From the NCBI GenBank assembly GCA_024636785.1, contig JAGXGK010000017.1:42284-106283 (forward strand): 64,000 nucleotides of DNA, in the 5' to 3' direction. The notes beneath the pieces are model-generated. The model was given only the letters and a program-made list of their open reading frames with translations, had not been told where the DNA came from and made no database searches. Position numbers and translations under genes: made by a program. This stretch comes from Gammaproteobacteria bacterium (lineage in GTDB: Bacteria; Pseudomonadota; Gammaproteobacteria; SZUA-229). Below are positions 15,833-58,051 of the stretch, piece after piece (the first letter of the stretch is position 1; every line of letters starts with the position of its first letter).

Positions 15833-17059
15833 ATGAGACGATTCGACTGGCCCCGACAGGCCTTGCTAGGCGCGTGTGTGCTTATTCTGCCCCTGCTTGC
15901 GCACGCACAAACTTCCGACTGGAACGTCTGGCTGGCATCCCAGATAAAACAGCACCCTGACGTGCTCGCTGCCCGCGAGCAATGGCTGGGTTCCAATGCC
16001 AGCGCCGACGCGGTGGCGCAGCCGCTCCACAACCCGGAGCTGTCCACCGAGCTGGAACGCAATGGCGAGGAAGACAACTACCAGGTCGGCATTCAGCAGA
16101 CCATCGACTGGTGGGACAAACGAAGCGCGAGACAGCAGCAAGCGGGTTTTATGCGAGTCGCTGCCGAAGCCATGTACCGCCGGCAAGTACTGGATAAAAC
16201 CGCCGAGGTGCTTTCGGTACTCGTCGAGTGGCGCTCTGCCAGCCGCGCCGCCACCATTGCACAGGCGCAAAAGGAGCAACTCGACACCCTGCTAACGTTG
16301 GCAGAAAAGCGTCAAAAAGCGGGCGATCTGGGCAGCATCGATGCCGAGCTCACCTTTCTGTCGCTGTCGCAACGCCTGGCGCAGGTCGCCGAGGTTGAAG
16401 CTACTTTACAGAAAGCTGAAATCAGGGCACGTGAATTGCTGCCACAGTGGACACCCGCGCGCGGTGGCATTCCCGAGAATTTCTGGCCGACCCAGCCAGG
16501 TTCCGCGACGGATCAGGAGCTGCTGCAACATCCGGCTGTCGCCAGTGCTCAGGCCCGTTGGCAATCACTGAAGGAAGAAGCCGAGGTGACACGGCGTACC
16601 GCCAGAGCGGAACCCACCGTCGGACTCAATGCCGGGCGCGATGGCGGAGAGAATCTGGTGGGATTATCCCTCTCCATTCCGCTGAATGTGCGCAACAACT
16701 TCAGTGCAGAAACCCGCGCCGCCGAGCAGGCAGCACTGGAGGCGGAGGCTCACTTTCAGGCGGTTTACCGCAAACAACGCTTCGACTTGCAGACTGCCCA
16801 GGCTGTCTGGCAGCGCTATGAACAACAATACCGTCGTTGGCAAAAGCTGGTTCAGGGCCGGGTGGAGAACAGCGCCGACCTGCTGGAACGGCAGTGGCGC
16901 AGCGGCGACCTCTCCACTACCGATTACCTGCTGGCATTGAATCAACGCGCCGAGAGTCTGCTGGCAGGCATCGAGCTGGAAAAACAGACCCGGCTCACAC
17001 TCACCGATGTACTGCTGCAATCGGGCCGCCTGACGGCCGCGACACAACTAACAAATTAA
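15833..17059 (+). CDS. czcC: TolC-family outer membrane efflux protein (CzcC/CusC-like)
   Basis: 408 aa, signal peptide, two-repeat OEP architecture. First gene of a CBA operon. Confidence 0.8.
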   Translation: MRRFDWPRQALLGACVLILPLLAHAQTSDWNVWLASQIKQHPDVLAAREQWLGSNASADAVAQPLHNPELSTELERNGEEDNYQVGIQQTIDWWDKRSARQQQAGFMRVAAEAMYRRQVLDKTAEVLSVLVEWRSASRAATIAQAQKEQLDTLLTLAEKRQKAGDLGSIDAELTFLSLSQRLAQVAEVEATLQKAEIRARELLPQWTPARGGIPENFWPTQPGSATDQELLQHPAVASAQARWQSLKEEAEVTRRTARAEPTVGLNAGRDGGENLVGLSLSIPLNVRNNFSAETRAAEQAALEAEAHFQAVYRKQRFDLQTAQAVWQRYEQQYRRWQKLVQGRVENSADLLERQWRSGDLSTTDYLLALNQRAESLLAGIELEKQTRLTLTDVLLQSGRLTAATQLTN

Positions 17060-17066
17060 GAACTGG

Positions 17067-18326
17067 ATGATGGCTATGAACAAAATACTGATTGCTATTT
17101 TTATCGCCGGTCTTGCGGCTACCTACGCAAGCCATGCCCAGTCGCCAGATGCGACCGAACATACTCATGAAGAAAGCAAACCTGCCACAGCACAAAACAA
17201 GCAGGATGAAATCCATGATGAACACAAATCGGATGCCGAACATGAGGTCGAGGAACATGGCGATAAGGAGCACGTAGATCACGCTGGTGAAGAGGACGAA
17301 AACGCTAACGAAGAATCCGCTTCCGCAGCACTGAAACCTGAGCAAATGACACTGGCCGGTATCCGGGTGGAGGTCCTTAACGCAAGGCCGGTTGATTACC
17401 AGCTCTACGCGCCGGGGGAGATCCTCTCCAACGGCTACACCAGTTACCGGGTATCACCCCGAGTGGCTTCGGTGGTGCTGCGCCGACATGTCGCTTTGGG
17501 CGATCACGTCAAGCAAGGCCAGCCGCTGGTCACCCTGTTCAGCGAGAGCATGGCGCAGGCGCAGGCTGACTACCGCACAGCCTGGCCCGAATGGCAAAGG
17601 GTGCAGGAGCTTGGGGGTAAAACCGTGGGAGAGCAGCGTTATATCGCTGCCAAGACGACCCTTGAAGCGTCCGAGGCAACCCTGTTGGCCTATGGCCTGA
17701 CGAAATCGGATCTAAAATCGCTGACATCTCAGCAATCCAGAGCATTGGGTGAATATACACTGCGCGCCGAAATCGATGGCGCCGTGCTCACCGACGATTT
17801 CGAGCAGGGGCAACGCATCGAGGCAGGCGCACCCCTGATCGCGCTGGCAGATGAAAAGCAGCTCTGGGTGGAAGCCCACCTGCCAGCCAATTTGTCGCTG
17901 ACTCTGGGTGCGGGAACGCAGGTGGAAGTCGTGACCGGTGATGTACACGTGATGGCCTCAGTCTCTCAGGAGGCGCACACCATCGACCCGGTCACCCGCA
18001 CCCGTACCGTGCGTCTGCTGGTGAATAACCCGGAACACCGTCTGCATCCGGGCCAGTTTGCCGAGGTCTTTTTCCGCTTCCGCACCAAAAAACCCGTGCT
18101 GGCGGTGCCCGAAACTGCCCTGATGCGTGGTGCAGATGGTGACTGGACGGTATTTGTGGAGGATCATCCGGGCGAGTTCATGCCGGTGGAGATTGAGTTG
18201 GGCCGTGCGCTTGGGCAGTTACGCGAAATCACCGGCGTCAAGCCGGGAACGCGCATCGTCACCGAAGGTGCTTTCTTTGTCGCCTCGCAGATCGCCAAAG
18301 GCGGTTTCGACCCGCATAACCACTAA
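17067..18326 (+). CDS. czcB: RND periplasmic adaptor (CzcB/CusB family) with His/Glu-rich N-terminal metal-binding region
   Basis: HTHEESK..HDEHKSDAEHEVEEHGDKEHVDHAGEED region, then HlyD-like beta-barrel/lipoyl domains. Confidence 0.85.
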   Translation: MMAMNKILIAIFIAGLAATYASHAQSPDATEHTHEESKPATAQNKQDEIHDEHKSDAEHEVEEHGDKEHVDHAGEEDENANEESASAALKPEQMTLAGIRVEVLNARPVDYQLYAPGEILSNGYTSYRVSPRVASVVLRRHVALGDHVKQGQPLVTLFSESMAQAQADYRTAWPEWQRVQELGGKTVGEQRYIAAKTTLEASEATLLAYGLTKSDLKSLTSQQSRALGEYTLRAEIDGAVLTDDFEQGQRIEAGAPLIALADEKQLWVEAHLPANLSLTLGAGTQVEVVTGDVHVMASVSQEAHTIDPVTRTRTVRLLVNNPEHRLHPGQFAEVFFRFRTKKPVLAVPETALMRGADGDWTVFVEDHPGEFMPVEIELGRALGQLREITGVKPGTRIVTEGAFFVASQIAKGGFDPHNH

Positions 18327-18341
18327 GCACCCGGAGAACTC

Positions 18342-21300
18342 ATGTTAAATAAAATCATCGATTGGGCGGTCAGCAACCGTTTGCTGGTAGTTATCGCCCT
18401 CATAACAATGACGGCAGCGGCCATTTCCATCATACCCACACTGAATCTGGATGCCTTTCCGGATGTCACCAACGTCCAGGTGTCGGTCAATACCGAAGCA
18501 CCGGGACTGGCCTCCGAGGAAGTGGAACAGCTCATCACCTACCCCATTGAGGCGGTGATGTATGCCCTGCCCGATGTGGAGGAAGTGCGCTCCATCTCCA
18601 AGACCGGCCTGTCCGGTGTCACGGTGGTGTTCAAGGAAGGCACGGATATCTACTTTGCCCGGCAACTGGTGTTCGAACGTCTTGAGGCCGCCAAAGAGCT
18701 GATCCCCGAAGGGGTCGGCACGCCGGCAATGGGGCCGAACACCTCCGGCCTGGGCCAGATCTATCAATATCTGCTGGTAGCCGAGCCCGGTACGGGCATC
18801 GACGCAATGGCCCTGCGCAGCCTCAACGACTGGGTGGTGAAGCTGCTGCTGATCCCGGCCGAGGGCGTCACCGATGTGCTCTCTTTCGGCGGCGAAGTGC
18901 GCCAGTACCAGGTCAATCTGAATCCATCCCGGCTACTGGCGTACGGCCTGACCCAGGATGAGGTGATGACGGCGCTCGAGCGCAACAATGAAAATGCCGG
19001 CGGCTGGTATATGAACCGGGGTCAGGAACAACTGGTGATCCGGGGCACCGGCTGGCTGGATCACGGCGAGCAGGGACTCGAACAGATCCGCCAGGTACCG
19101 CTGAAGACAGTGGACGGTACCACCATCACCGTGGCTGATGTCGCTCGCGTAGAGATGGGTAGCGAGATCCGTCAGGGCGCGGCGACCATGACGCGCAAGA
19201 ATGCCGACGGCAAAGTGGAGAACATGGGCGAGGTGGTGTCCGGCATCGTACTCAAGCGCATGGGAGCCAATACCAAGGCCACCATCGATGGGGTCAATGC
19301 GCGCATCGAGCGCATCAATCAGGCACTGCCCGAAGGTGTCCGCTTCGAGGCGTTTTACGACCAGGCAGATCTGATCGAAAAGGCCGTGAATACCGTGGCC
19401 AGGGCGCTGCTCGAGGCCTTCGTCTTCATCGTCATCGTACTGGTGCTGTTCCTGCTCAATGTGCGCGCCGTACTGCTGGTGCTGATTTCCATCCCGTTGT
19501 CGGTGGGCATGGCACTGGCGCTGATGGCCTACAACGGCCTGTCGGCCAATCTGATGTCGCTCGGCGGCCTGGCGGTGGCCATCGGCATGATGGTGGACGG
19601 TGCCGTGGTGATGATGGAAAACATCTTCAAGCACCTGAGCCATCCTGACCGCCGCCACGATGCCGAGGCAGCGGCGCGGGTATCAGCGGACGACGAGGAC
19701 TTTTACGATGTGGCGCACGATAGCAATGTCGGCCTGCGCATTCAGGAGGCGGCGCGTGAAGTGGCCAAGCCGGTGTTCTTCTCCATCACCATCATCATGG
19801 TGGTGTTCGCGCCGCTGTTCAGTCTGGAAGGCGTCGAGGGCAAGCTGTTCCAGCCCATGGCGCTGAGCATTCTGTTCGCCATGGCCGCATCCCTGCTGGT
19901 GTCGCTGATCGTGGTGCCCGCTCTGGCGAGTTATCTGTTCCGTCACGGCGTGCGTGCCAGAACCAGTCCGGTGGTGGCGGTGCTGGAAAAGGCTTACCGC
20001 TACACCCTGACCAGAGCCATGACCCACAAGCTCTGGGTATTGGGCGGCGCGGCGGGCCTGCTGCTGTCCGCTCTGGCACTGCTGCCTTACCTCGGCACAG
20101 AGTTCGTGCCGGAGCTGGAAGAAGGCACCATCAACCTGCGGGTGACTCTGGCACCCTCGTCCAGCCTGGATACGGCCCTTGAGGTCGCCCCCAAGCTGGA
20201 AGCCATACTGATGGAGTTCCCGGAGGTTACCTACGCGCTCTCGCGCATTGGCCGTGCCGAGATTGGCGGCGATCCCGAGCCGGTCAACAATATCGAAATC
20301 TATATCGGCCTCAAACCCGTACCGGAATGGACCAGCGCTGACAATCGCCAGGCGCTGCAGGCATTAATGGAACATAAGCTGGAACAGCACCCGGGACTAC
20401 TGCTCAACTTCTCACAGCCCATCGCCACCCGGGTGGATGAACTGCTGTCCGGGGTGAAGGCGCAGCTTGCCATCAAGTTGTTCGGCCCTGACCTTGCTGT
20501 GCTGGCCAAAAAGGGCCAGGCGATTGAGGCGGTGGTCAAGCAGATCGACGGTGCACGCGATGTCGCCATGGAGCAGATTGCCGGTGAATCACAACTCGTT
20601 GTGAAACCGGATCGCCGGGCCCTTTCCCGTTACGGTTTGGCGGTTGGCGACGTAATGGATCTGGTAAGCGAAGGCCTGGGCGGTGCCAGCGCTGGCCAGA
20701 TCATCAACGGCAACGAGCGTTACGACATCTACGTGCGCCTCGACGAACGCTTCCGTCAGGATCCCGAATCCATAGCCGATCTACGCCTGCAATCGCCTTC
20801 GGGTGCCTGGGTACGTCTGGGTGATGTGGCCGAGGTGAGCATCGCCTCCGGGCCACCGCAGGTGCGCCGCGATGACGTGCAGCGTCGCGTGGTGATTCAG
20901 GCCAATGTGCAGGGCCGCGACATGGGCAGCGTGGTCACTGATATCCGTCAGGTCATCGCTGACAAGGTGGATTTGCCAACAGGCTATTCAATAGTCATCG
21001 GCGGTCAGTTTGAGAACCAGCAGCGGGCGCAGCAACGGTTGACGATCGTGGTGCCGCTGTCCATCGGCCTGATCGCGCTGCTGCTGTACTTCGCCTTCCA
21101 TTCTGTCGGCCAGGCACTGCTGATCCTGATCAACCTGCCGCTGGCGATGATCGGCGGCATCGTCGCCCTGTTCCTGTCCGGGCAATACCTGTCGGTGCCC
21201 AGCTCCATCGGCTTCATTACCCTGTTCGGGGTGGCCGTGCTCAACGGCGTGGTGCTGGTGGAGGCCATCAACCTGCGCATCGAATCGGGTGATCGGGATA

Positions 21301-21539
21301 TCGGCAAAGCCGTGTTTGAAGGTGCGGTATCGCGGCTACGGCCGGTGTTGATGACCGCCATCGTCGCCGCGCTGGGGCTGATTCCCATGCTGATGTCCAG
21401 CGGCGTGGGCTCGGAGATCCAGCGGCCGTTGGCGACCGTGATCGTCGGTGGACTGGTAACCTCGACCTTCCTGACCCTGTTTGTATTGCCGGTGCTGTTC
21501 GCCCGGTTTTCAAAAGGCAAGTTGGGTGAGATGGCATAA
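18342..21539 (+). CDS. czcA: Heavy-metal efflux RND transporter (CzcA/CusA family)
   Basis: 1065 aa, 12-TM RND architecture, typical N-terminus MLNKIIDWAVSNRLLVV. Confidence 0.92.
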   Translation: MLNKIIDWAVSNRLLVVIALITMTAAAISIIPTLNLDAFPDVTNVQVSVNTEAPGLASEEVEQLITYPIEAVMYALPDVEEVRSISKTGLSGVTVVFKEGTDIYFARQLVFERLEAAKELIPEGVGTPAMGPNTSGLGQIYQYLLVAEPGTGIDAMALRSLNDWVVKLLLIPAEGVTDVLSFGGEVRQYQVNLNPSRLLAYGLTQDEVMTALERNNENAGGWYMNRGQEQLVIRGTGWLDHGEQGLEQIRQVPLKTVDGTTITVADVARVEMGSEIRQGAATMTRKNADGKVENMGEVVSGIVLKRMGANTKATIDGVNARIERINQALPEGVRFEAFYDQADLIEKAVNTVARALLEAFVFIVIVLVLFLLNVRAVLLVLISIPLSVGMALALMAYNGLSANLMSLGGLAVAIGMMVDGAVVMMENIFKHLSHPDRRHDAEAAARVSADDEDFYDVAHDSNVGLRIQEAAREVAKPVFFSITIIMVVFAPLFSLEGVEGKLFQPMALSILFAMAASLLVSLIVVPALASYLFRHGVRARTSPVVAVLEKAYRYTLTRAMTHKLWVLGGAAGLLLSALALLPYLGTEFVPELEEGTINLRVTLAPSSSLDTALEVAPKLEAILMEFPEVTYALSRIGRAEIGGDPEPVNNIEIYIGLKPVPEWTSADNRQALQALMEHKLEQHPGLLLNFSQPIATRVDELLSGVKAQLAIKLFGPDLAVLAKKGQAIEAVVKQIDGARDVAMEQIAGESQLVVKPDRRALSRYGLAVGDVMDLVSEGLGGASAGQIINGNERYDIYVRLDERFRQDPESIADLRLQSPSGAWVRLGDVAEVSIASGPPQVRRDDVQRRVVIQANVQGRDMGSVVTDIRQVIADKVDLPTGYSIVIGGQFENQQRAQQRLTIVVPLSIGLIALLLYFAFHSVGQALLILINLPLAMIGGIVALFLSGQYLSVPSSIGFITLFGVAVLNGVVLVEAINLRIESGDRDIGKAVFEGAVSRLRPVLMTAIVAALGLIPMLMSSGVGSEIQRPLATVIVGGLVTSTFLTLFVLPVLFARFSKGKLGEMA

Positions 21540-28594: not shown

Positions 28595-30465
<1,871 letters not shown>

Positions 30466-30473
<8 letters not shown>

Positions 30474-30774
30474 GCCGAAACCTGAGCGCAGTAACGAGAA
30501 AAAACCGCTCGGTGAGAAGGTGGGGCAGAGCGCGGCACGTAAACAACGCGCACGCGAACAAAATCAGCGTACCGCCTGGTTCGGGCTGGGCATGTTCGGG
30601 CTGGTCGGCTGGTCTGTTGCCATCCCTACTCTGCTCGGGATTTTTCTGGGCGTATGGCTCGACGGCCTCTATCCGGGCCGCGCTTCCTGGACGCTGACTT
30701 TTCTCATTCTGGGACTGGCGCTGGGTTGCCTCAATGCCTGGTACTGGATCAAACAGGAGAGTCGCCGTGAATGA
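30466..30774 (+). CDS. atpQ: N-ATPase AtpQ (AtpZ/AtpI-like small membrane subunit)
   Basis: 102 aa with a basic N-terminus and 2 TM helices. Overlaps the atpC stop. Confidence 0.6.
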
Positions 30775-31981
30775 AGCAAACAATCTGGCGCAAATTCTGA
30801 TCACCTTTGGCGGCCTGTTTCTGATTGGGCTGCTGGCCGATCTGTTGGGTCGGCATACGCCCCTGCCCCGGGTCACGCTGTTATTGCTAAGCGGCTTTGC
30901 CATCGGCCCTTCACTGCTCGACCTGCTGCCGGCCTTTACCGACCAGTGGTTCCCGGTACTCACCAACATCGCACTGGCCATGATCGGCTTTTTGCTGGGC
31001 CAGAACCTAACCCGTAAGCGCTTGTCCGAACTTGGGCGTCCAGTGCTCGCCATGTCGATTGGTGAAGTGATTATGACGGCCCTGCTGGTGTTCACCGTGC
31101 TGCGGCTGTTCGGGGTGTCGATGGAAATCGCATTGTTGCTGGCCGGCGTCGCCCCGGCCACTGCACCCGCGGCCACGGTCGATGTGGTGCATGAATACGG
31201 GGCCAAAGGAAAATTTACCGACACGCTGTTAGGTATTGTGACGATTGATGATGCCTGGGGGCTGCTGGTTTTTAGCCTGCTGCTGGCGACCGCTCAGTCC
31301 CTGAGCGGTGCGGAGGGTGCATGGCAAATTATCCAGACCGGTGCCTGGGAAGTTGGCGGCGCGATTTTGCTCGGCATCGTGCTCGGCCTGCCCATGGCCT
31401 ACCTTACCGGACGCATACTGCCCGGCGAACCTTCACAGGCGGAAGCTCTGGGGGTGGTGTTGCTCAGTGCCGGTGTCGCGGAATGGCTGAATGTTTCCTA
31501 CATCCTGTCGGCTATGGTGCTCGGTGCCACTGTAGCCAATTTAGCCAAACACCATGATCGCCCATTCAATGCCATCGAAGGCATTGAATGGCCATTCCTG
31601 ATTCTGTTTTTCCTGCTGGCGGGCGCGTCGCTGCACATCGACGCCCTGGCACAGGCGGGGGCGCTGGCTGCCGGTTATATTGCTTTGCGCATCGCCGGTC
31701 GACTTATCGGCACACGCCTCGGCGGCTGGCTGAGTGGCACAGACACCACAATCCGCCAATGGATCGGACTCGCGCTGTTACCTCAGGCCGGTGTCGCCAT
31801 CGGCATGGCGTTGATCGCCAGTCATCACTTCCCGGAAATCAAAGACGTGATTCTGCCGGTGGTGCTGGGGGCAACCGTCATCTTCGAAATTGTCGGTCCC
31901 ATCGCTACCCGCTGGACACTTATTCATGTCGGTGACATCACCAATAACAATAAACATAGACATAAAAAGACGCTCTCATGA
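30734..31981 (+). CDS. Cation:proton antiporter (CPA1/CPA2 superfamily, Na+/H+ exchanger-like) embedded in the N-ATPase operon
   Basis: 415 aa, about 12 TM helices, Na_H_Exchanger-like core (GVAPATAPAATVDVV...). Overlaps atpQ at the 5' end (alternative GTG start 30766) and atpR at the 3' end (ATGA). Confidence 0.8.
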   Translation: MPGTGSNRRVAVNEANNLAQILITFGGLFLIGLLADLLGRHTPLPRVTLLLLSGFAIGPSLLDLLPAFTDQWFPVLTNIALAMIGFLLGQNLTRKRLSELGRPVLAMSIGEVIMTALLVFTVLRLFGVSMEIALLLAGVAPATAPAATVDVVHEYGAKGKFTDTLLGIVTIDDAWGLLVFSLLLATAQSLSGAEGAWQIIQTGAWEVGGAILLGIVLGLPMAYLTGRILPGEPSQAEALGVVLLSAGVAEWLNVSYILSAMVLGATVANLAKHHDRPFNAIEGIEWPFLILFFLLAGASLHIDALAQAGALAAGYIALRIAGRLIGTRLGGWLSGTDTTIRQWIGLALLPQAGVAIGMALIASHHFPEIKDVILPVVLGATVIFEIVGPIATRWTLIHVGDITNNNKHRHKKTLS

Positions 31982-32304
31982 ACGAACTAATCCTTTATGG
32001 CGGCACTTTCATCGCAGGCCTCCTGCTGGGGATGCTGTTTTTCGGCGGCCTCTGGCTCACCCTGAACGGGCTTGAACGATCTCGTCACCCCGCGCTGAGA
32101 TTGCTGACCAGCCTGCTACTGCGTGTCACTCTGGTGCTCAGCGGATTTTATGCAATCGCTCAACTCGATGCCTGGCAGCACCTGCTGATGGCGCTCGCCG
32201 GCTTCATTACATCGCGATGGTGGATGACTCGGCGGTTGCGGACGATCAGCCATAAATCGTTGCCCGCCCACCTGACTCACAGCAAAAAGGAGACCATGAC
32301 ATGA
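31978..32304 (+). CDS. atpR: N-ATPase AtpR subunit
   Basis: 108 aa with 3 TM helices and conserved Arg in TM. ATGA overlaps on both sides. Confidence 0.6.
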   Translation: MNELILYGGTFIAGLLLGMLFFGGLWLTLNGLERSRHPALRLLTSLLLRVTLVLSGFYAIAQLDAWQHLLMALAGFITSRWWMTRRLRTISHKSLPAHLTHSKKETMT

Positions 32305-33047
32305 CCATTAGTCCCGACGGTCTCATCTTCCAGCAATGGGGCTGGTTTTCGCTCAATGCCACCATTGTCTATACCTGGCTGGTGATGGCGCTGCTCACGC
32401 TCATTTCCTGGCTGGTGACACGGCGCATGTCCACCGGCACCGAACTGCCCGCCTGGCAGAACCTGCTGGAGGTGCTGGTGACCGGCATTCGCGATCAGAT
32501 TCGTCAGGTCAGCCAGCAGAATCCGGGGCGTTATCTGCCTTTTGTCGGCAGCCTTTTTCTGTACATCGCCATGGCCAATCTGCTCAATATTGTGCCGGGG
32601 TACATGGCCCCGACCGGCTCGCTCTCCACCACGACGGCGCTGGCCATCTGCGTGTTTATCGCCGTGCCGATCTACGGCATCGCGTATCAAGGGCCGGTGA
32701 ATTATCTGAAGCACTATGTCAAACCGACCTGGCTGATGCTGCCGTTCAACATTATCGGTGAAATCTCACGCACCATTGCGCTGGCCGTGCGTCTGTACGG
32801 CAACATCATGAGCGGCACGGTTATCGTAGCTATTCTAATCAGCCTGACGCCCTATTTTTTCCCGGTGGTGATGGCGCTGCTGGGGCTGCTGACCGGCATG
32901 ATTCAGGCCTACATCTTCGCCGTTCTGGCCATGGTTTACATCGCCTCGGCGACCTCGCTACACTCGGGAGAAAGCGATGATGAGCAGCAATCGTCGCTAA
33001 CAGACACACCCGAAAAAGATAACCGGACATCCCCTAACACTGACTAA
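32301..33047 (+). CDS. atpB: Fo a subunit
   Basis: 248 aa; LAVRLYGNIMSG motif with the stator Arg of a-subunits. Confidence 0.85.
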   Translation: MTISPDGLIFQQWGWFSLNATIVYTWLVMALLTLISWLVTRRMSTGTELPAWQNLLEVLVTGIRDQIRQVSQQNPGRYLPFVGSLFLYIAMANLLNIVPGYMAPTGSLSTTTALAICVFIAVPIYGIAYQGPVNYLKHYVKPTWLMLPFNIIGEISRTIALAVRLYGNIMSGTVIVAILISLTPYFFPVVMALLGLLTGMIQAYIFAVLAMVYIASATSLHSGESDDEQQSSLTDTPEKDNRTSPNTD

Positions 33048-33057
33048 GGAGTATTTT

Positions 33058-33336
33058 ATGGACATGATTACCTACATCGGCATGGCATCCATCGTCACCG
33101 CCGGCATTACCATCGCCATTGGCTCCATCGGCCCGGCACTGGGCGAAGGACGCGCCGTCGCCCAGGCATTGAGCGCCATCGCCCAGCAGCCGGATGAAGC
33201 CAACACCATCACCCGAACGCTGTTTGTCGGCCTGGCAATGATCGAGTCCACGGCCATCTACTGTTTCGTGGTGGCCATGATCCTGATTTTCGCCAACCCT
33301 TTCTGGGATTACGCCACCGCCACAGCCGGGGGTTAA
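33058..33336 (+). CDS. atpE: Fo c subunit with complete Na+-binding signature (Q..E-S-T..Y)
   Basis: GEGRAVAQALSAIAQQPDE ... LAMIESTAIYCFV. The Gln + Glu-Ser-Thr + Tyr ligand set is characteristic of Na+-translocating c-rings. Confidence 0.85.
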   Translation: MDMITYIGMASIVTAGITIAIGSIGPALGEGRAVAQALSAIAQQPDEANTITRTLFVGLAMIESTAIYCFVVAMILIFANPFWDYATATAGG

Positions 33337-33339
33337 GGC

Positions 33340-34110
33340 ATGCAGATCGACTGGATCACAGTATCGGCGCAGATCGTCAACTTTCTAATTCTGGTCTGGC
33401 TGCTCAAACGCTTTCTATACCATCCGGTAATGCGCGCCATGGAGCAACGCGAACAGCGCATCGCCGATCGTTTGAACAAGGCCGAAGCACGCGAACAGCA
33501 GGCCAGTGAACAGCAGCAGCAATATCAGCATAAAACCGAAGAGCTGGAACGGAAGCGCGATGAAATGCTGATTAAAGCTCGCGAACAGGCCGAACAGGGA
33601 AAGCGGCAGCTGCTGGATGAAGCGCGTGCTATCGTCGCCGAAACTCGGAAGCAATGGCAGCAGCAGGCGGCTCAGGAAAAGGCTGATTTTTTCAACCGGC
33701 TGAAACAGGAAACCGCCGAAGCTATTCAGGCTATCGCGCGCAAAGCGCTCAAGGATCTGGCCGATGCCGGACTGGAAGAGCAGCTCATCGAAAAATTCAT
33801 CGAACAGCTCAAAGTCGCAGACAAGGATTTGCAGCAAACGCTCCACCACAACACAGGCCCACTGCGTATCCATACCGCCTATGAACTGGATTCGACGGTG
33901 CGCGCCCGACTCACCCGCTTCATGCACGAACATTTTTCTGCGGATATCCAGGTCGAATACAGCACCACGCCGGAACTGCTGTGCGGCATCCTGCTGGTGA
34001 GCGGCGACCGGCAGCTGGGCTGGAATCTGAACGAGTATCTGGATGATCTCAGCGAGCGCATGGATGAGGCTTTCAGTTCGGTCAGGCCTTCGGCAAAACA
34101 GGAGGATTAG
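33340..34110 (+). CDS. atpF: Fo b subunit (long, coiled-coil)
   Basis: N-terminal TM helix followed by a charged coiled-coil region. Confidence 0.7.
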   Translation: MQIDWITVSAQIVNFLILVWLLKRFLYHPVMRAMEQREQRIADRLNKAEAREQQASEQQQQYQHKTEELERKRDEMLIKAREQAEQGKRQLLDEARAIVAETRKQWQQQAAQEKADFFNRLKQETAEAIQAIARKALKDLADAGLEEQLIEKFIEQLKVADKDLQQTLHHNTGPLRIHTAYELDSTVRARLTRFMHEHFSADIQVEYSTTPELLCGILLVSGDRQLGWNLNEYLDDLSERMDEAFSSVRPSAKQED

Positions 34111-34113
34111 CGC

Positions 34114-35682
34114 GTGCTGCAGCAACTGCTCGATGACACCATGACCCGCCTGCACGAGGTAATCGAGAGCAGTGCCCCTGCTCTGCATACGCGTGAAACC
34201 GGCACGGTGCTGTCTGTGGGTGGGGGCATCGCCCGCGTCAGTGGCTTGCCCAGCCTCACCTCGGAAGAACTGGTGCAGTTCCCGGACGGGGTGCTGGGCG
34301 TGGCTATTAACCTTGAGGCCGATGTCGCCGGGATAATGCTGCTTGGCGATAGTGCCAGACTGTCGGCGGGCATTGAAGTCAGCGCCACCGGCCGCGAGGC
34401 CGACACCCCGGTTGGTGAAGGGCTGCTGGGGCGGGTGATCGATGCCACCGGAAAGGTGCTGGATCACGGCAAAGCCCTGCAATTCAGTGAACGCCGACCG
34501 GTGGAACGCCCGGCGCCCGCCATCATCGACCGCTCGCCGGTGACGGTACCGCTGGAAACCGGCATCAAGGCCATCGACGCTCTCATTCCCATCGGTCGCG
34601 GCCAGCGTGAACTCATCGTCGGCGACCGCCAGACCGGCAAAACCTCGGTGGCGGTCGACACCATCATTAATCAGCGTGACAAAAACGTCATATGCATCTA
34701 CTGCGCCATCGGCCAGCGCGGCACTGCGGTCTCCCGGGTAGTGGAGACGCTACGCAAACACAAAGCGCTGGCGCACACCATCGTGGTGGTCGCCTCGGAT
34801 GAAGACCCGCCCGGCCTGCGCTTCATCACCCCCTATGCCGCCACCACCATGGCCGAATATTTTATGGAACAGGGGCGCGATACGCTAATTGTTTATGACG
34901 ACCTCACCCGCCATGCCCGGGCCTATCGTGAACTATCCCTGCTGCTGCGTCGACCACCGGGGCGCGAGGCTTATCCGGGTGATATTTTCTACATTCATTC
35001 GCGTCTGCTGGAACGCGCCACTCACCTGCGCGACGGCGGCTCGCTGACCGCGTTACCGGTGATCGAAACACAGGCCCAGGACATCTCCGCCTACATCCCG
35101 ACTAATCTGATCTCCATTACCGATGGCCAGATCTATCTTTCACCGGCGTTGTTTCACAAAGGCCTGTTGCCCGCGATTGACGTCGGCAAATCGGTATCTC
35201 GGGTCGGCGGCAAAACGCAGTACCCGGCATTTCGCAGTGTCTCCGGCGATCTACGCCTCTCGTATTCACAGTTCGAAGAGCTGGAAACCTTCGCGCGCTT
35301 CGCCACCCGCATGGATGAAGATACGCGCCGAACAATCGAACACGGTCGACGCGTACGCGAAGTGCTGAAACAGCGCGAACATCATCCACTGCGCGCTAGC
35401 GAACAGATGGCGATACTCAAAACGCTCAATGCCGGAATGCTTGATAACCTGCCTCTGGAGCAGATCGCTAAAGCTGAAATGAAAATTCAGCAACGCATCG
35501 TCAATGAATTTCCCGAGCTTTGTGAAAGCATGGAAAAGGGTGAAAAACTGGATGATGCACAATGGCAGCCGCTACTGGAAATCGCCGAGAAGATACTGTC
35601 TGAAATGCGCGACGACGCTGAAAAACCTGAACAATCCGGCCCATCTGAAAGCGCTGATCAAAGCGAAGCTGCGCAGGAATAA
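34114..35682 (+). CDS. atpA: F1 alpha subunit
   Basis: Walker A GDRQTGKT, 522 aa. GTG start. Confidence 0.93.
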
Positions 35683-35685
35683 AGT

Positions 35686-36579
35686 ATGGAATCACTCGAC
35701 CAATTGCACAAACAACTCGACAGCCTCAACGAATTGCGCACCATCGTCAAAACCATGAAAGCCCTCTCGGCGGCGAGTATCAATCAATACGAGCAGGCGG
35801 TTAATGCACTCGCCGGTTATTATCAAACAGTGGCACGTGGCCTGCACGTGGTAATGAGAGACATGGAATCGGCACCTCCCCCAACTGCGCATACCGACAA
35901 GCCCCGGCGACTGGCCGCCATCGTTTTAGGTTCCGACCACGGACTCTGCGGCCGCTTCAACGAAGACATTGCCAGCTATGCGCTGGACAGCATGAACTCA
36001 ACCACTGCCGAACCAGAAAACCGCCTCATCCTCGCAGTGGGCGCCCGCGTTGCGTCCAGTCTGGAAAGCAATGGTCAGGCCATCGAAGAAAATTTCCTTG
36101 TCCCCGGCTCGGCCGAACAGATCACCGCCAGCGTGCAGCAGATCCTGCTTAAAATCGATGAATGGCGCGAACAGTCCGGAATGGAGCATGTCTACCTGTT
36201 CTACAATCGTCATTCCGGTGGCAGCAGTTACCAGTCTACTGGTTTTAAATTACTGCCAATCGACCTGCGCAATTTTCATCGCCTTAAAGAAGAACACTGG
36301 CCCTCACGCAGCCTGCCCACCTTCAGCATGAACCGCGAACAGCTACTTAGCCGCCTGCTGCATCAGTATCTTTTCGTTTCGATCTTCCGCGCCAGTGCCG
36401 AATCTCAGGCCAGTGAACACGCCAGCCGATTGGCGGCGATGCAATCGGCACAGCGTAATCTCGATGAACGACTGGGTGAAGTCACCATGGTGTTCCGACG
36501 TGCCCGACAAAACGCTATCACCTCCGAGTTGCTGGACGTTGTCTCCGGTTTTGAAGCACTGACCGGAATTGAAAAATAG
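35686..36579 (+). CDS. atpG: F1 gamma subunit
   Basis: 297 aa; conserved C-terminal helix AITSELLDVVSG. Confidence 0.85.
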   Translation: MESLDQLHKQLDSLNELRTIVKTMKALSAASINQYEQAVNALAGYYQTVARGLHVVMRDMESAPPPTAHTDKPRRLAAIVLGSDHGLCGRFNEDIASYALDSMNSTTAEPENRLILAVGARVASSLESNGQAIEENFLVPGSAEQITASVQQILLKIDEWREQSGMEHVYLFYNRHSGGSSYQSTGFKLLPIDLRNFHRLKEEHWPSRSLPTFSMNREQLLSRLLHQYLFVSIFRASAESQASEHASRLAAMQSAQRNLDERLGEVTMVFRRARQNAITSELLDVVSGFEALTGIEK

Positions 36580-36600
36580 ATGCTTAGGGAAGAAATTTTT

Positions 36601-36748
36601 CACCGCAGAGGTCGCAAAGAACGCAGAGGAAAATCTTGTTTTTTTATATAATAATTTTAAACATTTTATATGCGGGCATACGTTCTTTTTCTTAATTAAA
36701 AAGCGAACTAAAATTATCTATTTTTTCTCTGCGTTCTTTGCGACCTCT
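36601..36748. mobile_element. MITE-like element with about 28-bp TIRs (CACCGCAGAGGTCGCAAAGAACGCAGAGGAAAA ... TTTTTTCTCTGCGTTCTTTGCGACCTCT) and A/T-rich core
   Basis: Inverted termini flank a roughly 90-bp AT-rich spacer. Related elements at 49337-49476 and 60838-61158. Confidence 0.55.
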
Positions 36749-36930
36749 AATTCATCCTGAAAAATAACGCCTCCATCGCTTGCCTGATCCGAGGTTGGCA
36801 AAGAAAAACTTCTAAAGTTTAACGATTATACAGCTTCTACACAGGAGCGTGATGCGGCAAATACTTTCTAGACAGCATTTGCCGCCAGTATGCTGGCAGC
36901 GGTGACCTCCTCCGGAACCTTGATGATGAA

Positions 36931-37104
36931 TTAGCGCTCTCTAAGTTTATGTATTGCTTTGCGCAGAAAAGCAATCTGTTTATTGTAATTAGAGCAGCCA
37001 GAACAAATGAACAGGTGAAAGCGCAGGCGAATACGTTCAGGCAGAGATAATTCCCGATCCTGTGACTGCGACACCAGGCGGGTCGCCTGTTTACAATTCA
37101 TCAT
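36931..37104 (-). CDS. zf-HC2 type anti-sigma factor (57 aa, below ORF-track threshold)
   Basis: Manual translation gives MMNCKQATRLVSQSQDRELSLPERIRLRFHLFICSGCSNYNKQIAFLRKAIHKLRER, with the H-x3-C-x2-C motif. Its start overlaps the stop of the ECF sigma gene (ATGATGA). Confidence 0.55.
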   Translation of the reverse strand: MMNCKQATRLVSQSQDRELSLPERIRLRFHLFICSGCSNYNKQIAFLRKAIHKLRER

Positions 37105-37694
37105 GAAAGCCGCCCTCCCCGTATATAGTTATTTTCCAGACATTTTCGTAGCTGCGAGCGTGCGCGGTGCATGATCACCCAGGCATTGCTGTCGCTCAGA
37201 TTAAGCTCCCTGCACACCTCCTTAAGCTCAAGCCCGAGGTGTTCCCGCATCATAAATACACGGGAGGTATTAGCAGGCAGATGATTAAGGCAGATTTCAA
37301 AAATGACCCAGAACTGTTCATTATCGAAATTTTTTTCCGGTTGTCCCCAGTCAGAGGGCTTGTGGGTTTTTTTCCAGTGGTCTCTGCCATCAAACGCCTC
37401 ATCATCGTTGTCGTTATCTTCGATAAAAGATTCCGTCGGGTAGCGACTGCGTTCGCGGATAACATCAATAATTTTGTTCCGCAGTATGGCAAACACCCAG
37501 CTCTTAAGGCTGCCCCGGCCATTGAATTTTGCTGTTGAGATAGCAGCACTAATGGCTTCATGGACAATGTCCTCTGCCAGCACTGCATCGCGCAACTGCA
37601 AGGTGGTAAAGCGCAGCATCTCTTCCCTCATTGATGCAACCTGTTCGGCATCAACATAACCGGAATGCGAAGCGTGTACTGCGTTCTTATCCAA
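37101..37694 (-). CDS. ECF-subfamily RNA polymerase sigma-70 factor
   Basis: Region 2 (AEDIVHEAISAAISTAKFNGRGSLKSWVFAILRNKIID) and region 4 (LKEVCRELNLSDSNAWVIMHRARSQLRK). Confidence 0.85.
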   Translation of the reverse strand: MDKNAVHASHSGYVDAEQVASMREEMLRFTTLQLRDAVLAEDIVHEAISAAISTAKFNGRGSLKSWVFAILRNKIIDVIRERSRYPTESFIEDNDNDDEAFDGRDHWKKTHKPSDWGQPEKNFDNEQFWVIFEICLNHLPANTSRVFMMREHLGLELKEVCRELNLSDSNAWVIMHRARSQLRKCLENNYIRGGRLS

Positions 37695-37792
37695 AATAAC
37701 TACCTTATAGAATTAATGATTTAATATAAGGTAGCCTTTATCCGCAAAACAGTAAAGCTCGATTCTTGATACAGCCTGTAAACTTTCTCCAG

Positions 37793-38392
37793 CTAAGTCT
37801 TTAACCAGCGATTTTTAAACCAGTAGTCGATAGAGAGATAACGCCCCGCGCCATAGAAGAACAACACCAGCAGCATGATGAAATAGGTGGCCGCGAACTC
37901 GATGCCATTATTGAGCATAACAAGACTGCCATGCTCTGTTAGCCAGCTGTAATTACCGTGCTCTCTTAAAATTTCTTTGGCGACATCAAGACGTTCGATT
38001 GCGGCGACAGTGCGATCATTGGCGAAAAGACTGCCTGAGCCTTCCGCGATGGCCAGCCAGCCGTTTTTCCAGTGCACCGTAAACATAGCCACCAGCATCG
38101 TTACCATCAGCGGAATCGTTATCCAGCGAACAGCCAGCCCGACGAGCAATAATATGGCACCGCCCGATTCCGTCAGGGCCGCAGCCCAGGCCATAATTTC
38201 AGGAAACGGCAGACCGAGACCCCAGTCCGGATTGCCGAACCATTCAATGGTGGAATCCATATTAGCCAGTTTTTTGGTTCCCGCCGTCCAGAATATCGGC
38301 ACCAGATACAGTCGTAATGCCAGCGGCGCGAGAAAATCAGCCGATTTTGTGATGTTCAGTATTTCATATAATTTGTTAAATGTCCGTTTCAT
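37793..38392 (-). CDS. DoxX-family membrane protein (HvfX-like RiPP-metallophore partner)
   Basis: 199 aa, DoxX-like TM helices (LRLYLVPIFWTAGTKK...). Sits directly downstream of the HvfA-like precursor. Confidence 0.65.
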   Translation of the reverse strand: MKRTFNKLYEILNITKSADFLAPLALRLYLVPIFWTAGTKKLANMDSTIEWFGNPDWGLGLPFPEIMAWAAALTESGGAILLLVGLAVRWITIPLMVTMLVAMFTVHWKNGWLAIAEGSGSLFANDRTVAAIERLDVAKEILREHGNYSWLTEHGSLVMLNNGIEFAATYFIMLLVLFFYGAGRYLSIDYWFKNRWLKT

Positions 38393-38465
38393 AATAGCCC
38401 TTGTTACTTTGATTATTTGCCATTAATAAACCGTCCCTGGTCATAACTGATGGGAGATTAAATAC

Positions 38466-38789
38466 TTAGCTGGCTCCGCCGCACTTGCCTTCCTGCACTT
38501 TGGGTTTGCCCTCAGCTTTATCACCGCCGCACTTGCCTTCAGCTTCTTTAGCATCTTTCGACTCGCCGCATTTACCTTCTGCATCCTTCGTCTTGCCGGC
38601 AGCCGCTTTATCGCCACACTTGCCTTCGCCACATTTACCTTCGTTTACCGCCACTTGATAGCCGCCGGAGAGACTGGTCATGCCGAAGGGATTGCTGTCA
38701 GCAGCCAGTACCGAAACACTGGCCATGCCCATTACGAGTGCGGCGCCACTAGCCAGAGAAAGGGTTTTGATGTTTTTGATGGTATTCAT
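38466..38789 (-). CDS. HvfA-like secreted RiPP metallophore precursor (bufferin-type) with five EGKCG repeats
   Basis: Sec signal peptide, then NEGKCGEGKCGDK...AEGKCGESK...AEGKCGGDK...QEGKCGGAS. RBS GGAG. Confidence 0.7.
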   Translation of the reverse strand: MNTIKNIKTLSLASGAALVMGMASVSVLAADSNPFGMTSLSGGYQVAVNEGKCGEGKCGDKAAAGKTKDAEGKCGESKDAKEAEGKCGGDKAEGKPKVQEGKCGGAS

Positions 38790-39343
38790 AATTATGCTCC
38801 AATATCTTTAAAATAAAATTCAGGGTTATCTGTTCAATTTTAATGAACATGCATAGTAGTCGCTGCTGAGCCGATTTCCTTACAACTTTCTTGAAATTAA
38901 TTTCATCCGCAATTGCTGTAACCGTGGTAATACTTTCTGGTGAAGCTTTTTCCAGGCATCAAATCTTCAAATACGAAATGGAATGACTGATATTTTTTAA
39001 TGCCCGATCTACGCCACCATAGCCTCGTGCCTCGCTCATCTAAACCCGAATAACCCCATTAAGTCTGTAGCAAGGAGATCTAAATGGCGTGTGATGCTGG
39101 CAAACAATATCGCCGGCACAAAAGATTTAAAGCGATTCGATTTCATAATCTCTCGCCGGGTTTCTGGCACGGGCGGGAGGCGGCACCTTGGCGCTAGCAC
39201 TCTGGTCAGGGTGCAGGCACCGAAACAACCTTACAGGGACTGCTTGGTCGCGTGTCATGAACTGCGAGCCACTGACCTCTATTGAATGGTTATTTGGATC
39301 AACTGATAATTCCCGGTTGGGTTGAAAAATGGCTGTGATTTAT

Positions 39344-39503
39344 ACCCGAATCCGTGGCTTAAACGTGGATGCATGATGCAAGATATTGGCTTCACAGTGG
39401 CTTCAGAAAACTCAGCTTCACCCTTAGGTTAAGCGGGCATTTTTGATCTGCTGTGGAGCCAGGAGCTTGTGCCAGGCGCCATGGTTAAGCCACAGATTCA
39501 TAT
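39344..39503. mobile_element. MITE-like element, family 2 (termini CCCGAATCCGTGGCTTAAAC / GTTAAGCCACAGATTC)
   Basis: About 85% similar to segments of 57698-57930. Abuts the stop of the RibD_C gene. Confidence 0.55.
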
Positions 39504-39505
39504 AC

Positions 39506-40375
39506 TTAATCGCAACCTGTTGACGTAGTCCGGGGAATTTTTTCATAGATACTGAAAAACTGATCACAGTGCTCATGCGTTTTACTATCGTAATAAAGCG
39601 TTTTTAGCATGAAATCGGCCGGCGGTCGTAACAGCTCGCCCCCGAGCAGCGTATCATACGAAGCACCACCAATAAGACGGTGCACCTGAGTGAGATAGAT
39701 ACAATCCAGTACGTCCGCCTGTAATAATGTTTCCAGCACGACCGGTCCGGCAATTGAATAAATATTGTAAAGCCCGGCTGAGGTCAGCTGTTCGATCAGC
39801 TGCTGACCATCAACGTCTTTGCCCTCACCGGCAAAAAGTAATTTTACACCGCTGTTTTCTATCACTCGGACGGCTTCAGCATCGGCACCTTTACCAGTAG
39901 CGACATAAACCACTCGGTCAGTGGTGGCACATAATTCTGCCAGTGGCAGATCCAGACTTGCGCTGAGTACCACCACCGCCGGTTGCGGCGTTAGCCCCTG
40001 TTCCCTGCGCCAGGCCAGCAGATCTTCAAAAACCGGATCGTTGCCGATCGGCATATTATCCTGTGCCTCACCACGCACAAGTTCACGTAAGAAACGCGCG
40101 CTGACCAGCAGCACATCGGCGCGTGCCGCGAGTTCCTGATACAGGCGCCAGTCACGCGGATTTGTGATGGTTCTGGGCACACCCCGTTTACCCGTTACCG
40201 GCTGCTCGATAGCGATACGCCCATCCAGACTGACGATGAAATTGGTATACACCCAGGCGCGCCGCTCATCACTGTCCCGACCAAAAGGGGTATTGAGATA
40301 TAGCCCTTCCAGCTCATATTCAGTGCCAGGCTGAGGATAAAGGCGGGTAACAGTGTCTGAATTTATTGATGACAT
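39506..40375 (-). CDS. RibD C-terminal domain / dihydrofolate-reductase-like reductase
   Basis: 289 aa; DGRIAIEQPVTGKRG and NADPH-binding pattern of the RibD_C family. Confidence 0.7.
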   Translation of the reverse strand: MSSINSDTVTRLYPQPGTEYELEGLYLNTPFGRDSDERRAWVYTNFIVSLDGRIAIEQPVTGKRGVPRTITNPRDWRLYQELAARADVLLVSARFLRELVRGEAQDNMPIGNDPVFEDLLAWRREQGLTPQPAVVVLSASLDLPLAELCATTDRVVYVATGKGADAEAVRVIENSGVKLLFAGEGKDVDGQQLIEQLTSAGLYNIYSIAGPVVLETLLQADVLDCIYLTQVHRLIGGASYDTLLGGELLRPPADFMLKTLYYDSKTHEHCDQFFSIYEKIPRTTSTGCD

Positions 40376-42078: not shown

Positions 42079-42444
42079 ATGCAGGACACTAGAAAGATTG
42101 TCGAGAATCCGGATCTTCCCAGTCCAAAACGCGCAGATCGCGAAGTCGATCTGAAAAACTGGAATGAAGATCAGGGACGGCGTAATGCTAAAGAGGAAGG
42201 CGTTGAGATGACAGATGCGCACTGGGAAATCATTTATTTCCTGCGTGACTACTATCTCGAGCATGGCCCGGTTGAAAATGCACGAGAGCTCAGTGATGCA
42301 TTGAATAACCAGTTTGTGGATAAAGGTGGACGAAAATACTTACGTCAACTGTTCCCGCAAGGTCCGGTTGGACAAGGCATGCGTATCGCCGGCCTGAAAG
42401 CACCGCCATTGACAGAAGGTGACGGTTTCGGCGTTAGCTACTGA
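42079..42444 (+). CDS. DsrC/TusE-family protein lacking both conserved C-terminal cysteines
   Basis: DsrE/DsrC fold signature (RELSDALNNQF...YLRQLFPQGPVGQGMRIAGLKAPP) but the C-terminus is ...LTEGDGFGVSY with no Cys. Confidence 0.7.
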   Translation: MQDTRKIVENPDLPSPKRADREVDLKNWNEDQGRRNAKEEGVEMTDAHWEIIYFLRDYYLEHGPVENARELSDALNNQFVDKGGRKYLRQLFPQGPVGQGMRIAGLKAPPLTEGDGFGVSY

Positions 42445-57697: not shown

Positions 57698-57930
57698 TTA
57701 ACCTGAATCCGTGGCTTAACCGCGGCGCCTGGCACATGCTCTTGATTGTTCACCACATCCATGTGGTTCACCCCTGCGGGGCTGACGCGCCAAATCGCTC
57801 CTGGCGATTTGGTCCACAGCGGATCAAAAAATGCCCGCTTAACCTATGGGTAAAGCTAAGATTTTTTGATCCGCTGTGAAACCAATATCTTGCACCATGC
57901 ATCCACGTTTAAACCACGGTTTCAGGTTTA
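57698..57930. mobile_element. MITE-like element, family 2 (TIR TTAACCTGAATCCGTGGCTTAACC / GGTTTAAACCACGGTTTCAGGTTTA) with internal palindrome
   Basis: About 24-bp TIRs. Internal inverted repeat CACAGCGGATCAAAAAAT..ATTTTTTGATCCGCTGTG. Related copy at 39344-39503. Confidence 0.55.
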
Positions 57931-58051
57931 AGATAGATCTCATTATGCACAGATGGTCAAAATAAACGATATTCAAGTGTCTGGCAGTCCGGCTTTTACA
58001 TGAACAAAACAACTGATGACAAATCAATATCTTGCGGTTTCTGCGACTGGC

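Follow-up and report, generated by a model that had tools for sequence, protein, structure and literature searches.

Can an operon that encodes a peptide precursor of the EGKCG-repeat type keep working after the genes for the precursor's modifying enzymes have disappeared from it, and what then becomes of the peptide? The question is raised by a 64,000-nucleotide stretch of a genome of a Gammaproteobacteria bacterium (GenBank assembly GCA_024636785.1, contig JAGXGK010000017.1, positions 42,284 to 106,283 of the forward strand), which we refer to, at its full length, as the window. On its minus strand, four genes run in the same direction (window 38789 to 36931): hvfA, encoding the precursor of a ribosomally synthesized and post-translationally modified peptide (RiPP); hvfX, encoding a membrane protein of the DoxX family; and genes for an extracytoplasmic function (ECF) sigma factor and an anti-sigma factor. 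We use "BC-less" for hvfA-hvfX-sigma-antisigma loci without hvfB (MNIO) and hvfC (DUF2063/PME1), and labels of the form L002–L006, L064, or L082 for the related loci that we compared with the window.

What is new here is that the BC-less operon is old, monophyletic, and under selection, having originated by a precise deletion in a six-gene cassette, that DoxX and the regulators were kept together with the precursor after the loss of hvfBC, and that the loss occurred more than once. We favor, with middling confidence, the reading of this locus as a functional, vertically inherited deletion derivative of a six-gene stress operon, hvfA-hvfB-hvfC-hvfX-sigma-antisigma, with maturation in trans being most likely.

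The four genes and the missing maturase

Neither the MNIO enzyme (DUF692, PF05114) nor its DUF2063 partner, which modify the precursor in described hvf and bufferin loci, is encoded anywhere in the 64-kb window. The best tblastn matches with L006 HvfB and HvfC as queries had E values of 2.6 and 0.9, respectively, and profile hidden Markov models (HMMs) from 92 HvfB and 99 HvfC sequences returned best E values of 1.9 and 0.54 against all 819 stop-to-stop open reading frames (ORFs) of the window. A first-pass annotation of this DNA had noted the absence of both genes within 3 kb, and by tblastn and profile HMMs the statement holds across the whole 64 kb. Since the searches for the two defining enzymes found neither, the locus is not an MNIO-PME1 gene cluster, i.e., not a biosynthetic gene cluster of the hvf, buf, or captophorin kind.

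The four genes themselves are well supported (Table 1). The identities and coordinates that had been assigned to them all match, on the minus strand and with a family model for each, and the spacing of 73 bp between hvfA and hvfX is exact. The search with the NCBIfam HvfA and HvfX models proposed in the first-pass annotation brought both proteins above cutoff: HvfA passes NF050137 (KCGExKCG_twice; 31.1 bits, cutoff 19.5), and HvfX scores 237.8 bits on NF050144 (cutoff 80) and 76.6 bits on Pfam DoxX. On NF050188, the equivalog model of the Haemophilus-type HvfA, the precursor fails (35.5 bits, cutoff 95), and by these models it is a domain-level member of the family and not an equivalog of the HvfA of nontypeable Haemophilus influenzae. 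It contains five exact EGKCG motifs. Its predicted signal peptide, read from the sequence, combines a basic n-region with a hydrophobic core and a V-L-A cleavage motif, and is followed by the N-region NPFGMTSLSGGYQVA in an alignment with about 60 homologues, all of which have the same layout.

The sigma factor matches TIGR02943 (219.4 bits, cutoff 162.2) as well as Sigma70_r2 and r4_2, and its N-terminus, as translated from a TTG start, is kept in L002 and L003. The anti-sigma factor matches zf-HC2 and NF052368 (83.6 bits, cutoff 50), has no hydrophobic or membrane segment, and presents Cys4, His30, Cys34, and Cys37 as candidate zinc ligands (an H-x3-C-x2-C motif plus an N-terminal cysteine, read from the sequence). 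The sigma and anti-sigma genes overlap by 4 bp, which suggests translational coupling.

Origin by deletion from a six-gene operon

We recovered approximately 160 HvfX-bearing loci for comparison. In most of them, hvfB and hvfC accompany hvfA and hvfX, and the gene order is A-B-C-X, A-X-B-C, or X-A-B-C. The nearest maturase-bearing relatives (L006, L082, L084, L086/87, and L094) have the operon A-B-C-X-sigma-antisigma, hvfA being truncated by the contig end in L094, and L085 carries the same operon up to hvfX, where its contig ends. Every close homologue of L006 HvfB that we examined lies in an A-B-C-X-sigma-antisigma operon or on a contig ending within one. The order A-X-sigma-antisigma is found in four species-representative metagenome-assembled genomes (MAGs; L002–L005) and in the metagenome contigs L091–L093, and the A-X junction is present in L089 and L090 before the contig ends.

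In a bootstrapped neighbor-joining tree of concatenated HvfX and sigma factor sequences, the window, L002, L003, L004, L091, L092, and L093, all BC-less, form one clade (100% bootstrap). L006, L094, L082, and L084, all with maturases, are sister to this seven-member clade (joint node 81%), and L086, also with maturases, branches outside both. The BC-less clade is nested among six-gene hvfA-B-C-X-sigma-antisigma operons, and the locus is therefore a deletion derivative. The BC-less L005 sits on a separate branch, which argues for a second, independent loss of hvfBC; other A-X loci without B or C are L078, L143, and L161.

The deletion can be placed with some precision. Downstream of hvfA, the motif GACCAGGGNNGGT is found both in the spacer to hvfB of full operons (L082–L087) and in the spacer to hvfX of BC-less ones (window, L003, and L004), and since the two spacers share it, the deletion ran from just past the motif to the ribosome-binding region of hvfX. 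In relatives, GACCAGGGNNGGT(C) occupies L004 520–533, L082 2822–2835, L084 630–643, and L086 5957–5970, where it forms a short stem-loop, TGACC-AGGGA-GGTCA, with a 5-bp stem and an AGGGA loop. It is limited to the sigma-linked hvf clade, and may adjust the ratio of precursor to enzyme by acting in RNA processing or stability; an Rfam scan of window 36000–40000 matched no structured RNA family at E ≤ 1. Synteny between L003 and the window extends past both ends of the operon, reaching through a ribD-like gene in one direction and the ATPase operon in the other, so that the BC-less operon was inherited in place.

Purifying selection and the precursor after the loss

In the BC-less clade, selection on all four genes is purifying. 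For comparisons in which synonymous sites have not reached saturation, the ratio of nonsynonymous to synonymous substitution rates (dN/dS) is 0.10–0.15 for hvfA (against L003 and L004), 0.06–0.19 for hvfX, 0.10–0.14 for the sigma gene, and 0.09–0.28 for the 57-codon anti-sigma gene. Between deeper members of the clade synonymous sites are saturated, and the BC-less architecture is therefore old.

The part of HvfA on which an MNIO would act has not relaxed. In nine BC-less HvfAs, each of the 55 core cysteines has a KCG context, and the full EGKCG motif surrounds 75% of them, as compared with 53% in the maturase-bearing sister clade. The N-region, NPFxM..L..GY.VA, is equally conserved in BC-less and maturase-bearing operons. 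The number of core cysteines varies, with five in the window HvfA and six in that of L003. The HvfA of L005 (2202–2519) has nine KCG motifs, mostly in an SKKCGD repeat, and a diverged N-region (NPFGISDLESSPLILA) that has lost GY; here the constraints on recognition could have been relaxed.

A predicted Neisseria-type promoter upstream of hvfA

A search for an ECF-dependent promoter, also proposed in the first-pass annotation, succeeded. The bipartite motif TGTAAGGAAA-TCGGCTCAGCAG-CGACT at 38884–38858, 69 bp upstream of the hvfA ATG and preceded by an AT-rich stretch, occurs once in the window with zero occurrences expected by chance, and it is conserved ahead of hvfA whether or not the operon contains hvfB and hvfC. 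Neisseria sigmaE has the consensus GTMAGBWTT (−35), a spacer of 12–13 nt, and CGTCTAAH (−10) with an AT-rich upstream region, as deduced from promoters of sigmaE-controlled genes (PMC2893595). Against this consensus, which is that of Neisseria, the window promoter matches at seven of nine −35 positions and six of eight −10 positions, with a 12-nt spacer. A scan for sigma-70 promoters and terminators gave no excess over chance.

The Neisseria operon NMB2140–2145 consists of doxX, precursor, MNIO, DUF2063, rpoE, and mseR genes and is autoregulated (PMC2893595), and the H. influenzae RpoE2/HrsE pair controls the hvf (doxX) operon together with msrAB and responds to hypochlorous acid (HOCl; PMC11252979, PMC7907618). 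Judged by its motifs and family matches, the regulatory half of the window locus is of this known kind (sigmaE/MseR or RpoE2/HrsE). In L064 the ECF promoter motif occurs twice (4717–4743 and 11158–11184), once before an AhpC/TSA peroxiredoxin gene leading into hvfABCX and once before genes for a DUF6789 membrane protein and a glutamate-synthase-domain protein, which hints at a wider oxidative-stress regulon. Beside sigma-linked hvf loci, a pair of genes for a TetR regulator and an AhpD-like carboxymuconolactone decarboxylase (CMD) recurs (L002 1770–2983, L003 6773–7989, L006 6470–7724, L064 3448–4689, and L078 7523–9336); the pair is not in the window.

How the operon would work, and what matures HvfA

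The reading that we favor builds on what was observed: the gene content, the origin by deletion, conservation across the clade, purifying selection, the match to the promoter consensus, and the positions of the anti-sigma ligands. We propose that oxidants such as HOCl, and possibly copper, would impose a thiol-reactive stress that attacks the zinc site of Cys4/His30/Cys34/Cys37 in the cytoplasmic anti-sigma factor, and that the freed ECF sigma factor would then transcribe the whole operon from 38884–38858, from hvfA and hvfX to the sigma and anti-sigma genes themselves. The result would be positive autoregulation with a built-in brake. HvfA would be exported by Sec and its signal peptide removed, and the Cys-repeat peptide would buffer Cu(I) in the periplasm beside the DoxX membrane protein. 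Prior to export, the HvfA cysteines would be converted to 5-thiooxazoles, a change of −4 Da per cysteine with absorbance near 305 nm, by an MNIO/PME1 pair from another locus of the genome. The inducing signal, co-transcription, export, and copper binding are the steps that we infer, and maturation in trans is the least certain.

A maturase elsewhere is judged most likely because hvfB and hvfC have been deleted from the operon, and we give its modifying HvfA about an even chance. The full retention of the MNIO substrate motif and of the N-region speaks for it; HvfC is known to bind HvfA, with an intact N-region being optimal for modification. Unmodified HvfA takes up only two to three Cu(I), more weakly than bicinchoninic acid (BCA), and oxidizes to disulfides. 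Among 2583 complete genomes with EGKCG precursors, only 67 are free of MNIO (PMC12452194, Table 3).

We also searched for a relocated hvfBC with L006 HvfB against 5.8 billion proteins and looked up five of the closest matches. Four sit in full A-B-C-X(-sigma-antisigma) operons, and the fifth, L088, is a 1.3-kb contig with hvfA-hvfB-hvfC up to the contig end; none of the five lies on a contig of a BC-less MAG, and a maturase acting in trans is thereby neither shown nor excluded. A substitute RiPP enzyme (radical-SAM, YcaO, or other) was not found in the flanks of the BC-less L003, L004, L005, and L092, which are heterogeneous in content (DsrC, glyoxalase, EptA, OmpA-like, and TetR/CMD).

Several considerations weigh against maturation in trans. 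No MNIO or PME1 gene was found in any sequence from BC-less genomes, i.e., in the 64-kb window and in flanks of tens of kilobases of L002–L005 and L091–L093. Deletion in situ is simpler than relocation, so that maturation in trans requires a second, pre-existing MNIO/PME1 pair that recognizes the precursor. That hvfBC were lost at least twice and the losses persisted also fits a self-sufficient hvfA-hvfX unit, and conservation of the KCG motifs and the N-region could reflect structural or DoxX-related constraints. Some complete genomes carry EGKCG precursors without any MNIO (PMC12452194), and the published base rate is one of complete genomes, mostly of cultured pathogens and not of uncultured sediment bacteria.

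The strongest alternative is a genome without MNIO and PME1, in which the exported EGKCG peptide, its thiols unmodified, would either buffer Cu(I) at lower affinity or be consumed by HOCl and other oxidants as a sacrificial sink, with DoxX, as a membrane oxidoreductase, being the true partner (for example, coupling the thiol/disulfide state of the peptide to the quinone pool) and the pair of zinc-binding anti-sigma and ECF sigma factors the redox-sensing switch. We consider this possible but less probable than maturation in trans. It would explain why hvfB and hvfC were cleanly deleted while hvfA and hvfX stayed adjacent under purifying selection, why the loss recurred, in the seven-member clade, in L005, and in the A-X loci L078, L143, and L161, and why no flank that we examined contains an MNIO. 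The 67 complete genomes in which EGKCG precursors occur but MNIO does not (PMC12452194) set a precedent, and unmodified HvfA still holds its two to three Cu(I). The regulon of the homologous sigma factors is an oxidative and HOCl response that includes MsrAB and, in L064, the peroxiredoxin. In Caulobacter, DoxX is not needed for modification (PMC11626156), and its role therefore lies elsewhere. However, relaxation of the substrate motif and N-region is not seen, unmodified HvfA loses its Cu(I) to BCA and oxidizes to disulfides, MNIO is present in 97% of complete genomes with such precursors (PMC12452194), and no biochemical role is known for HvfX.

Decay of the locus into an hvf remnant with an HvfA that no longer functions, one of the options left by the first-pass annotation, is very unlikely, and we rejected it. 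The neighborhood in the window has indeed decayed relative to L003, with the molybdopterin oxidoreductase gene in fragments, the DJ-1, cytochrome c, and TetR/CMD genes gone, and MITE-like elements (miniature inverted-repeat transposable elements) present, and HvfA has one cysteine fewer than in L003. The operon itself, however, has four intact ORFs in every member of an old clade with 100% bootstrap support, with dN/dS far below 1; the EGKCG motifs and the N-region are as well kept as in maturase operons; and loci that have diverged to saturation at synonymous sites still share the promoter, the signal peptide, the KCG motifs, and the zinc ligands. For the likelihoods given to maturation in trans, to MNIO independence, and to decay, we relied on the published base rate and on the fraction of BC-less A-X loci in our sample.

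A collapse of hvfB and hvfC out of the contig during assembly, for which only the unusual architecture speaks, was rejected as next to impossible, since an independent Logan assembly (SRR13628065) agrees with window 36604–39388 at all 2785 bp, the hvfA-hvfX junction included, and the same junction occurs in L002, L003, L004, L091, L092, and L093, which come from different studies.

Surroundings of the operon

The coordinates of the operon and of the features next to it are collected in Table 1.

Table 1 Features of the hvfA-hvfX locus and its immediate surroundings (window coordinates)
Feature	Position	Strand	Basis or remark
hvfA, precursor, 107 aa	38466..38789	-	EGKCG-repeat (Buf_EGKCG/oxazolin/captophorin-type); NF050137, alignment of ~60 homologues
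Sec signal peptide (predicted), residues 1-29 MNTIKNIKTLSLASGAALVMGMASVSVLA, then ADS	38703..38789	-	read by eye
hvfX, DoxX-family membrane protein, 199 aa	37793..38392	-	NF050144 and Pfam DoxX
ECF sigma factor, 197 aa, TTG start	37101..37694	-	TIGR02943, Sigma70_r2, r4_2
Anti-sigma factor, putative cytoplasmic zinc-binding (ZAS), 57 aa	36931..37104	-	zf-HC2, NF052368
ECF-type promoter (predicted)	38858..38884	-	-35 GTAAGGAAA, 12-nt spacer, -10 CGACTACT
Intergenic motif after hvfA GACCAGGGACGGT	38430..38442	-	conserved in relatives
Molybdopterin oxidoreductase pseudogene remnants, sulfite-oxidase family, divergent from hvfA	39087..39324	+	blastn/tblastn against L003
MITE-like element, 21-nt terminal inverted repeats	39340..39500		further copies in window and L003
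AT-rich element of 142 bp, 27-nt inverted-repeat ends	36607..36748		between convergent atpG and anti-sigma genes

The region upstream of hvfA had been described as 550 bp of non-coding DNA ending in a MITE. It contains no intact ORF (38790–39340) and does end in the MITE-like element; it is, however, not featureless, as the remnants at 39087–39324 are 79% identical over 168 nt (blastn and tblastn) to an intact L003 gene of 442 amino acids, with a frameshift in the region of the twin-arginine (Tat) signal. The intact L003 gene (3086–4414) is divergent from hvfA and matches Pfam Oxidored_molyb and Mo-co_dimer. In L003, genes for this molybdopterin oxidoreductase, a cytochrome c, and a DJ-1/PfpI protein lie between the ribD-like gene and hvfA, and the window has lost all three. 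Molybdoenzyme genes of the sulfite-oxidase family have been noted in a few EGKCG clusters.

The MITE-like element is about 160 bp long. A second copy in the window (57704–57931) is 86% identical, inverted, and apparently carries a 68-bp internal insertion, and a third lies in L003 (964–1122) at a non-homologous site. The inverted repeats of the AT-rich element on the other side of the operon (27 nt) are 96% complementary, with a fold z of −8. We considered this element as the MITE of the first-pass annotation and rejected it, since it is single-copy in the window and one of its arms is ancestral, L003 having only that arm at the same place; the MITE is the element at 39340–39500. The AT-rich element is probably a bidirectional terminator or an insertion scar.

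Farther out, the window carries an ATP synthase operon (28595–36579, plus strand) of unusual gene order as read from translations (beta, epsilon, ..., a, c, b, alpha, gamma), with a G+C content of 0.56–0.62 against approximately 0.47 in the adjacent hvf operon. We take it to be a candidate for the laterally mobile N-type ATPase operons, which it resembles. A heavy-metal efflux system of the resistance-nodulation-division (RND) type is encoded about 17 kb from the hvf operon (15833–21539, plus strand), with a pump of the CusA/CzcA family (1059 bits), an adaptor of the CzcB/CusB type, and an upstream 408-aa gene without a family match. DsrC/TusE-like genes lie near BC-less hvf operons in two genomes (window 42079–42444, plus strand; L004 2255–2620), which fits sulfur-oxidizing hosts, related MAGs being named Thiogranum, Thiohalobacter, and Sedimenticolaceae.

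Relation to known systems

The closest known relatives are the six-gene operons of uncultured Gammaproteobacteria (L006, L082, L084, and L086), which are 74–76% identical to the window in HvfX and 47–65% in the sigma factor, and which share with it the promoter motif, the post-hvfA motif, and the anti-sigma factor. They keep hvfB and hvfC between hvfA and hvfX, whereas the window clade has lost exactly that segment.

Among characterized systems, the gonophorin cluster of Neisseria meningitidis and N. gonorrhoeae (NMB2140–NMB2145) resembles the window locus in uniting DoxX, an EGKCG precursor, an ECF sigma factor, and a small zinc-binding anti-sigma factor in one operon, and in its promoter type, GTAAGG..-N12-13-CG.CTA. 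with an upstream AT-rich stretch (PMC2893595). The candidate ligand positions of the window anti-sigma factor (Cys4, His30, Cys34, and Cys37) are identical to those of Neisseria MseR (NMB2145), the cysteines of which are essential for activity (PMC2893595). The Neisseria operon differs in its order, X-A-B-C-sigma-antisigma against A-X-sigma-antisigma, and in having the MNIO (NMB2142) and DUF2063 (NMB2143) genes that are missing from the window.

The oxazolin operon hvfXABC of H. influenzae has a precursor of the same type (signal peptide and EGKCG) and an HvfX of the same family, the window protein being far above the NF050144 cutoff. Its host also has an ECF sigma factor and a small cytoplasmic anti-sigma factor, the HOCl-responsive RpoE2/HrsE (PMC11252979, PMC7907618). 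In Haemophilus, however, the regulators are encoded apart from the operon, the operon encodes HvfB and HvfC, on which modification depends, and the precursor belongs to the equivalog whose cutoff the window HvfA does not reach (35.5 against 95 bits), the window HvfA passing the domain-level model alone. More distant is the Caulobacter bufferin operon buf1ABCD (SigF/NrsF), which likewise produces a periplasmic, cysteine-derived, copper-buffering RiPP and has a DoxX gene and ECF control (PMC11626156). Its precursor is of the DUF2282 family, its anti-sigma factor NrsF is a membrane protein in contrast to the cytoplasmic zinc-binding protein of the window, and BufB and BufC are required for function whereas DoxX is dispensable (PMC11626156).

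The novelty that had been claimed for the locus was overstated. A six-gene doxX-hvfA-MNIO-DUF2063-sigmaE-antisigma operon has already been described in Neisseria (PMC2893595), and EGKCG precursors unlinked to MNIO have been reported, with 67 of 2583 complete genomes lacking MNIO (PMC12452194, Table 3), the authors suggesting modification in trans or none. The window locus is an instance of the same phenomenon. That study, however, is a census without a phylogeny, whereas the form in the window is a conserved, monophyletic A-X-sigma-antisigma operon in which hvfA is not a stray stand-alone gene.

Implications

To our knowledge, every member of these families studied so far (oxazolin, gonophorin, fontiphorin, and the bufferins) is defined by its MNIO maturase, and we know of no role for the DoxX partner. 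The significance of the present locus is tempered by MNIO-unlinked precursors being already on record. Even so, the BC-less clade, of uncultured gammaproteobacteria of probable sulfur type, is a natural knockout, in which the maturase genes are gone and the precursor, DoxX, the sigma and anti-sigma factors, and the promoter have been kept under selection. If the maturase is encoded elsewhere, then MNIO/PME1 pairs would serve precursors in trans, across loci and under one stress regulon. If there is no maturase, then the peptide and DoxX would have a maturase-independent function; thiooxazole modification would be an optional upgrade and not the essence of this peptide family, and DoxX/HvfX would gain a function tied directly to the peptide.

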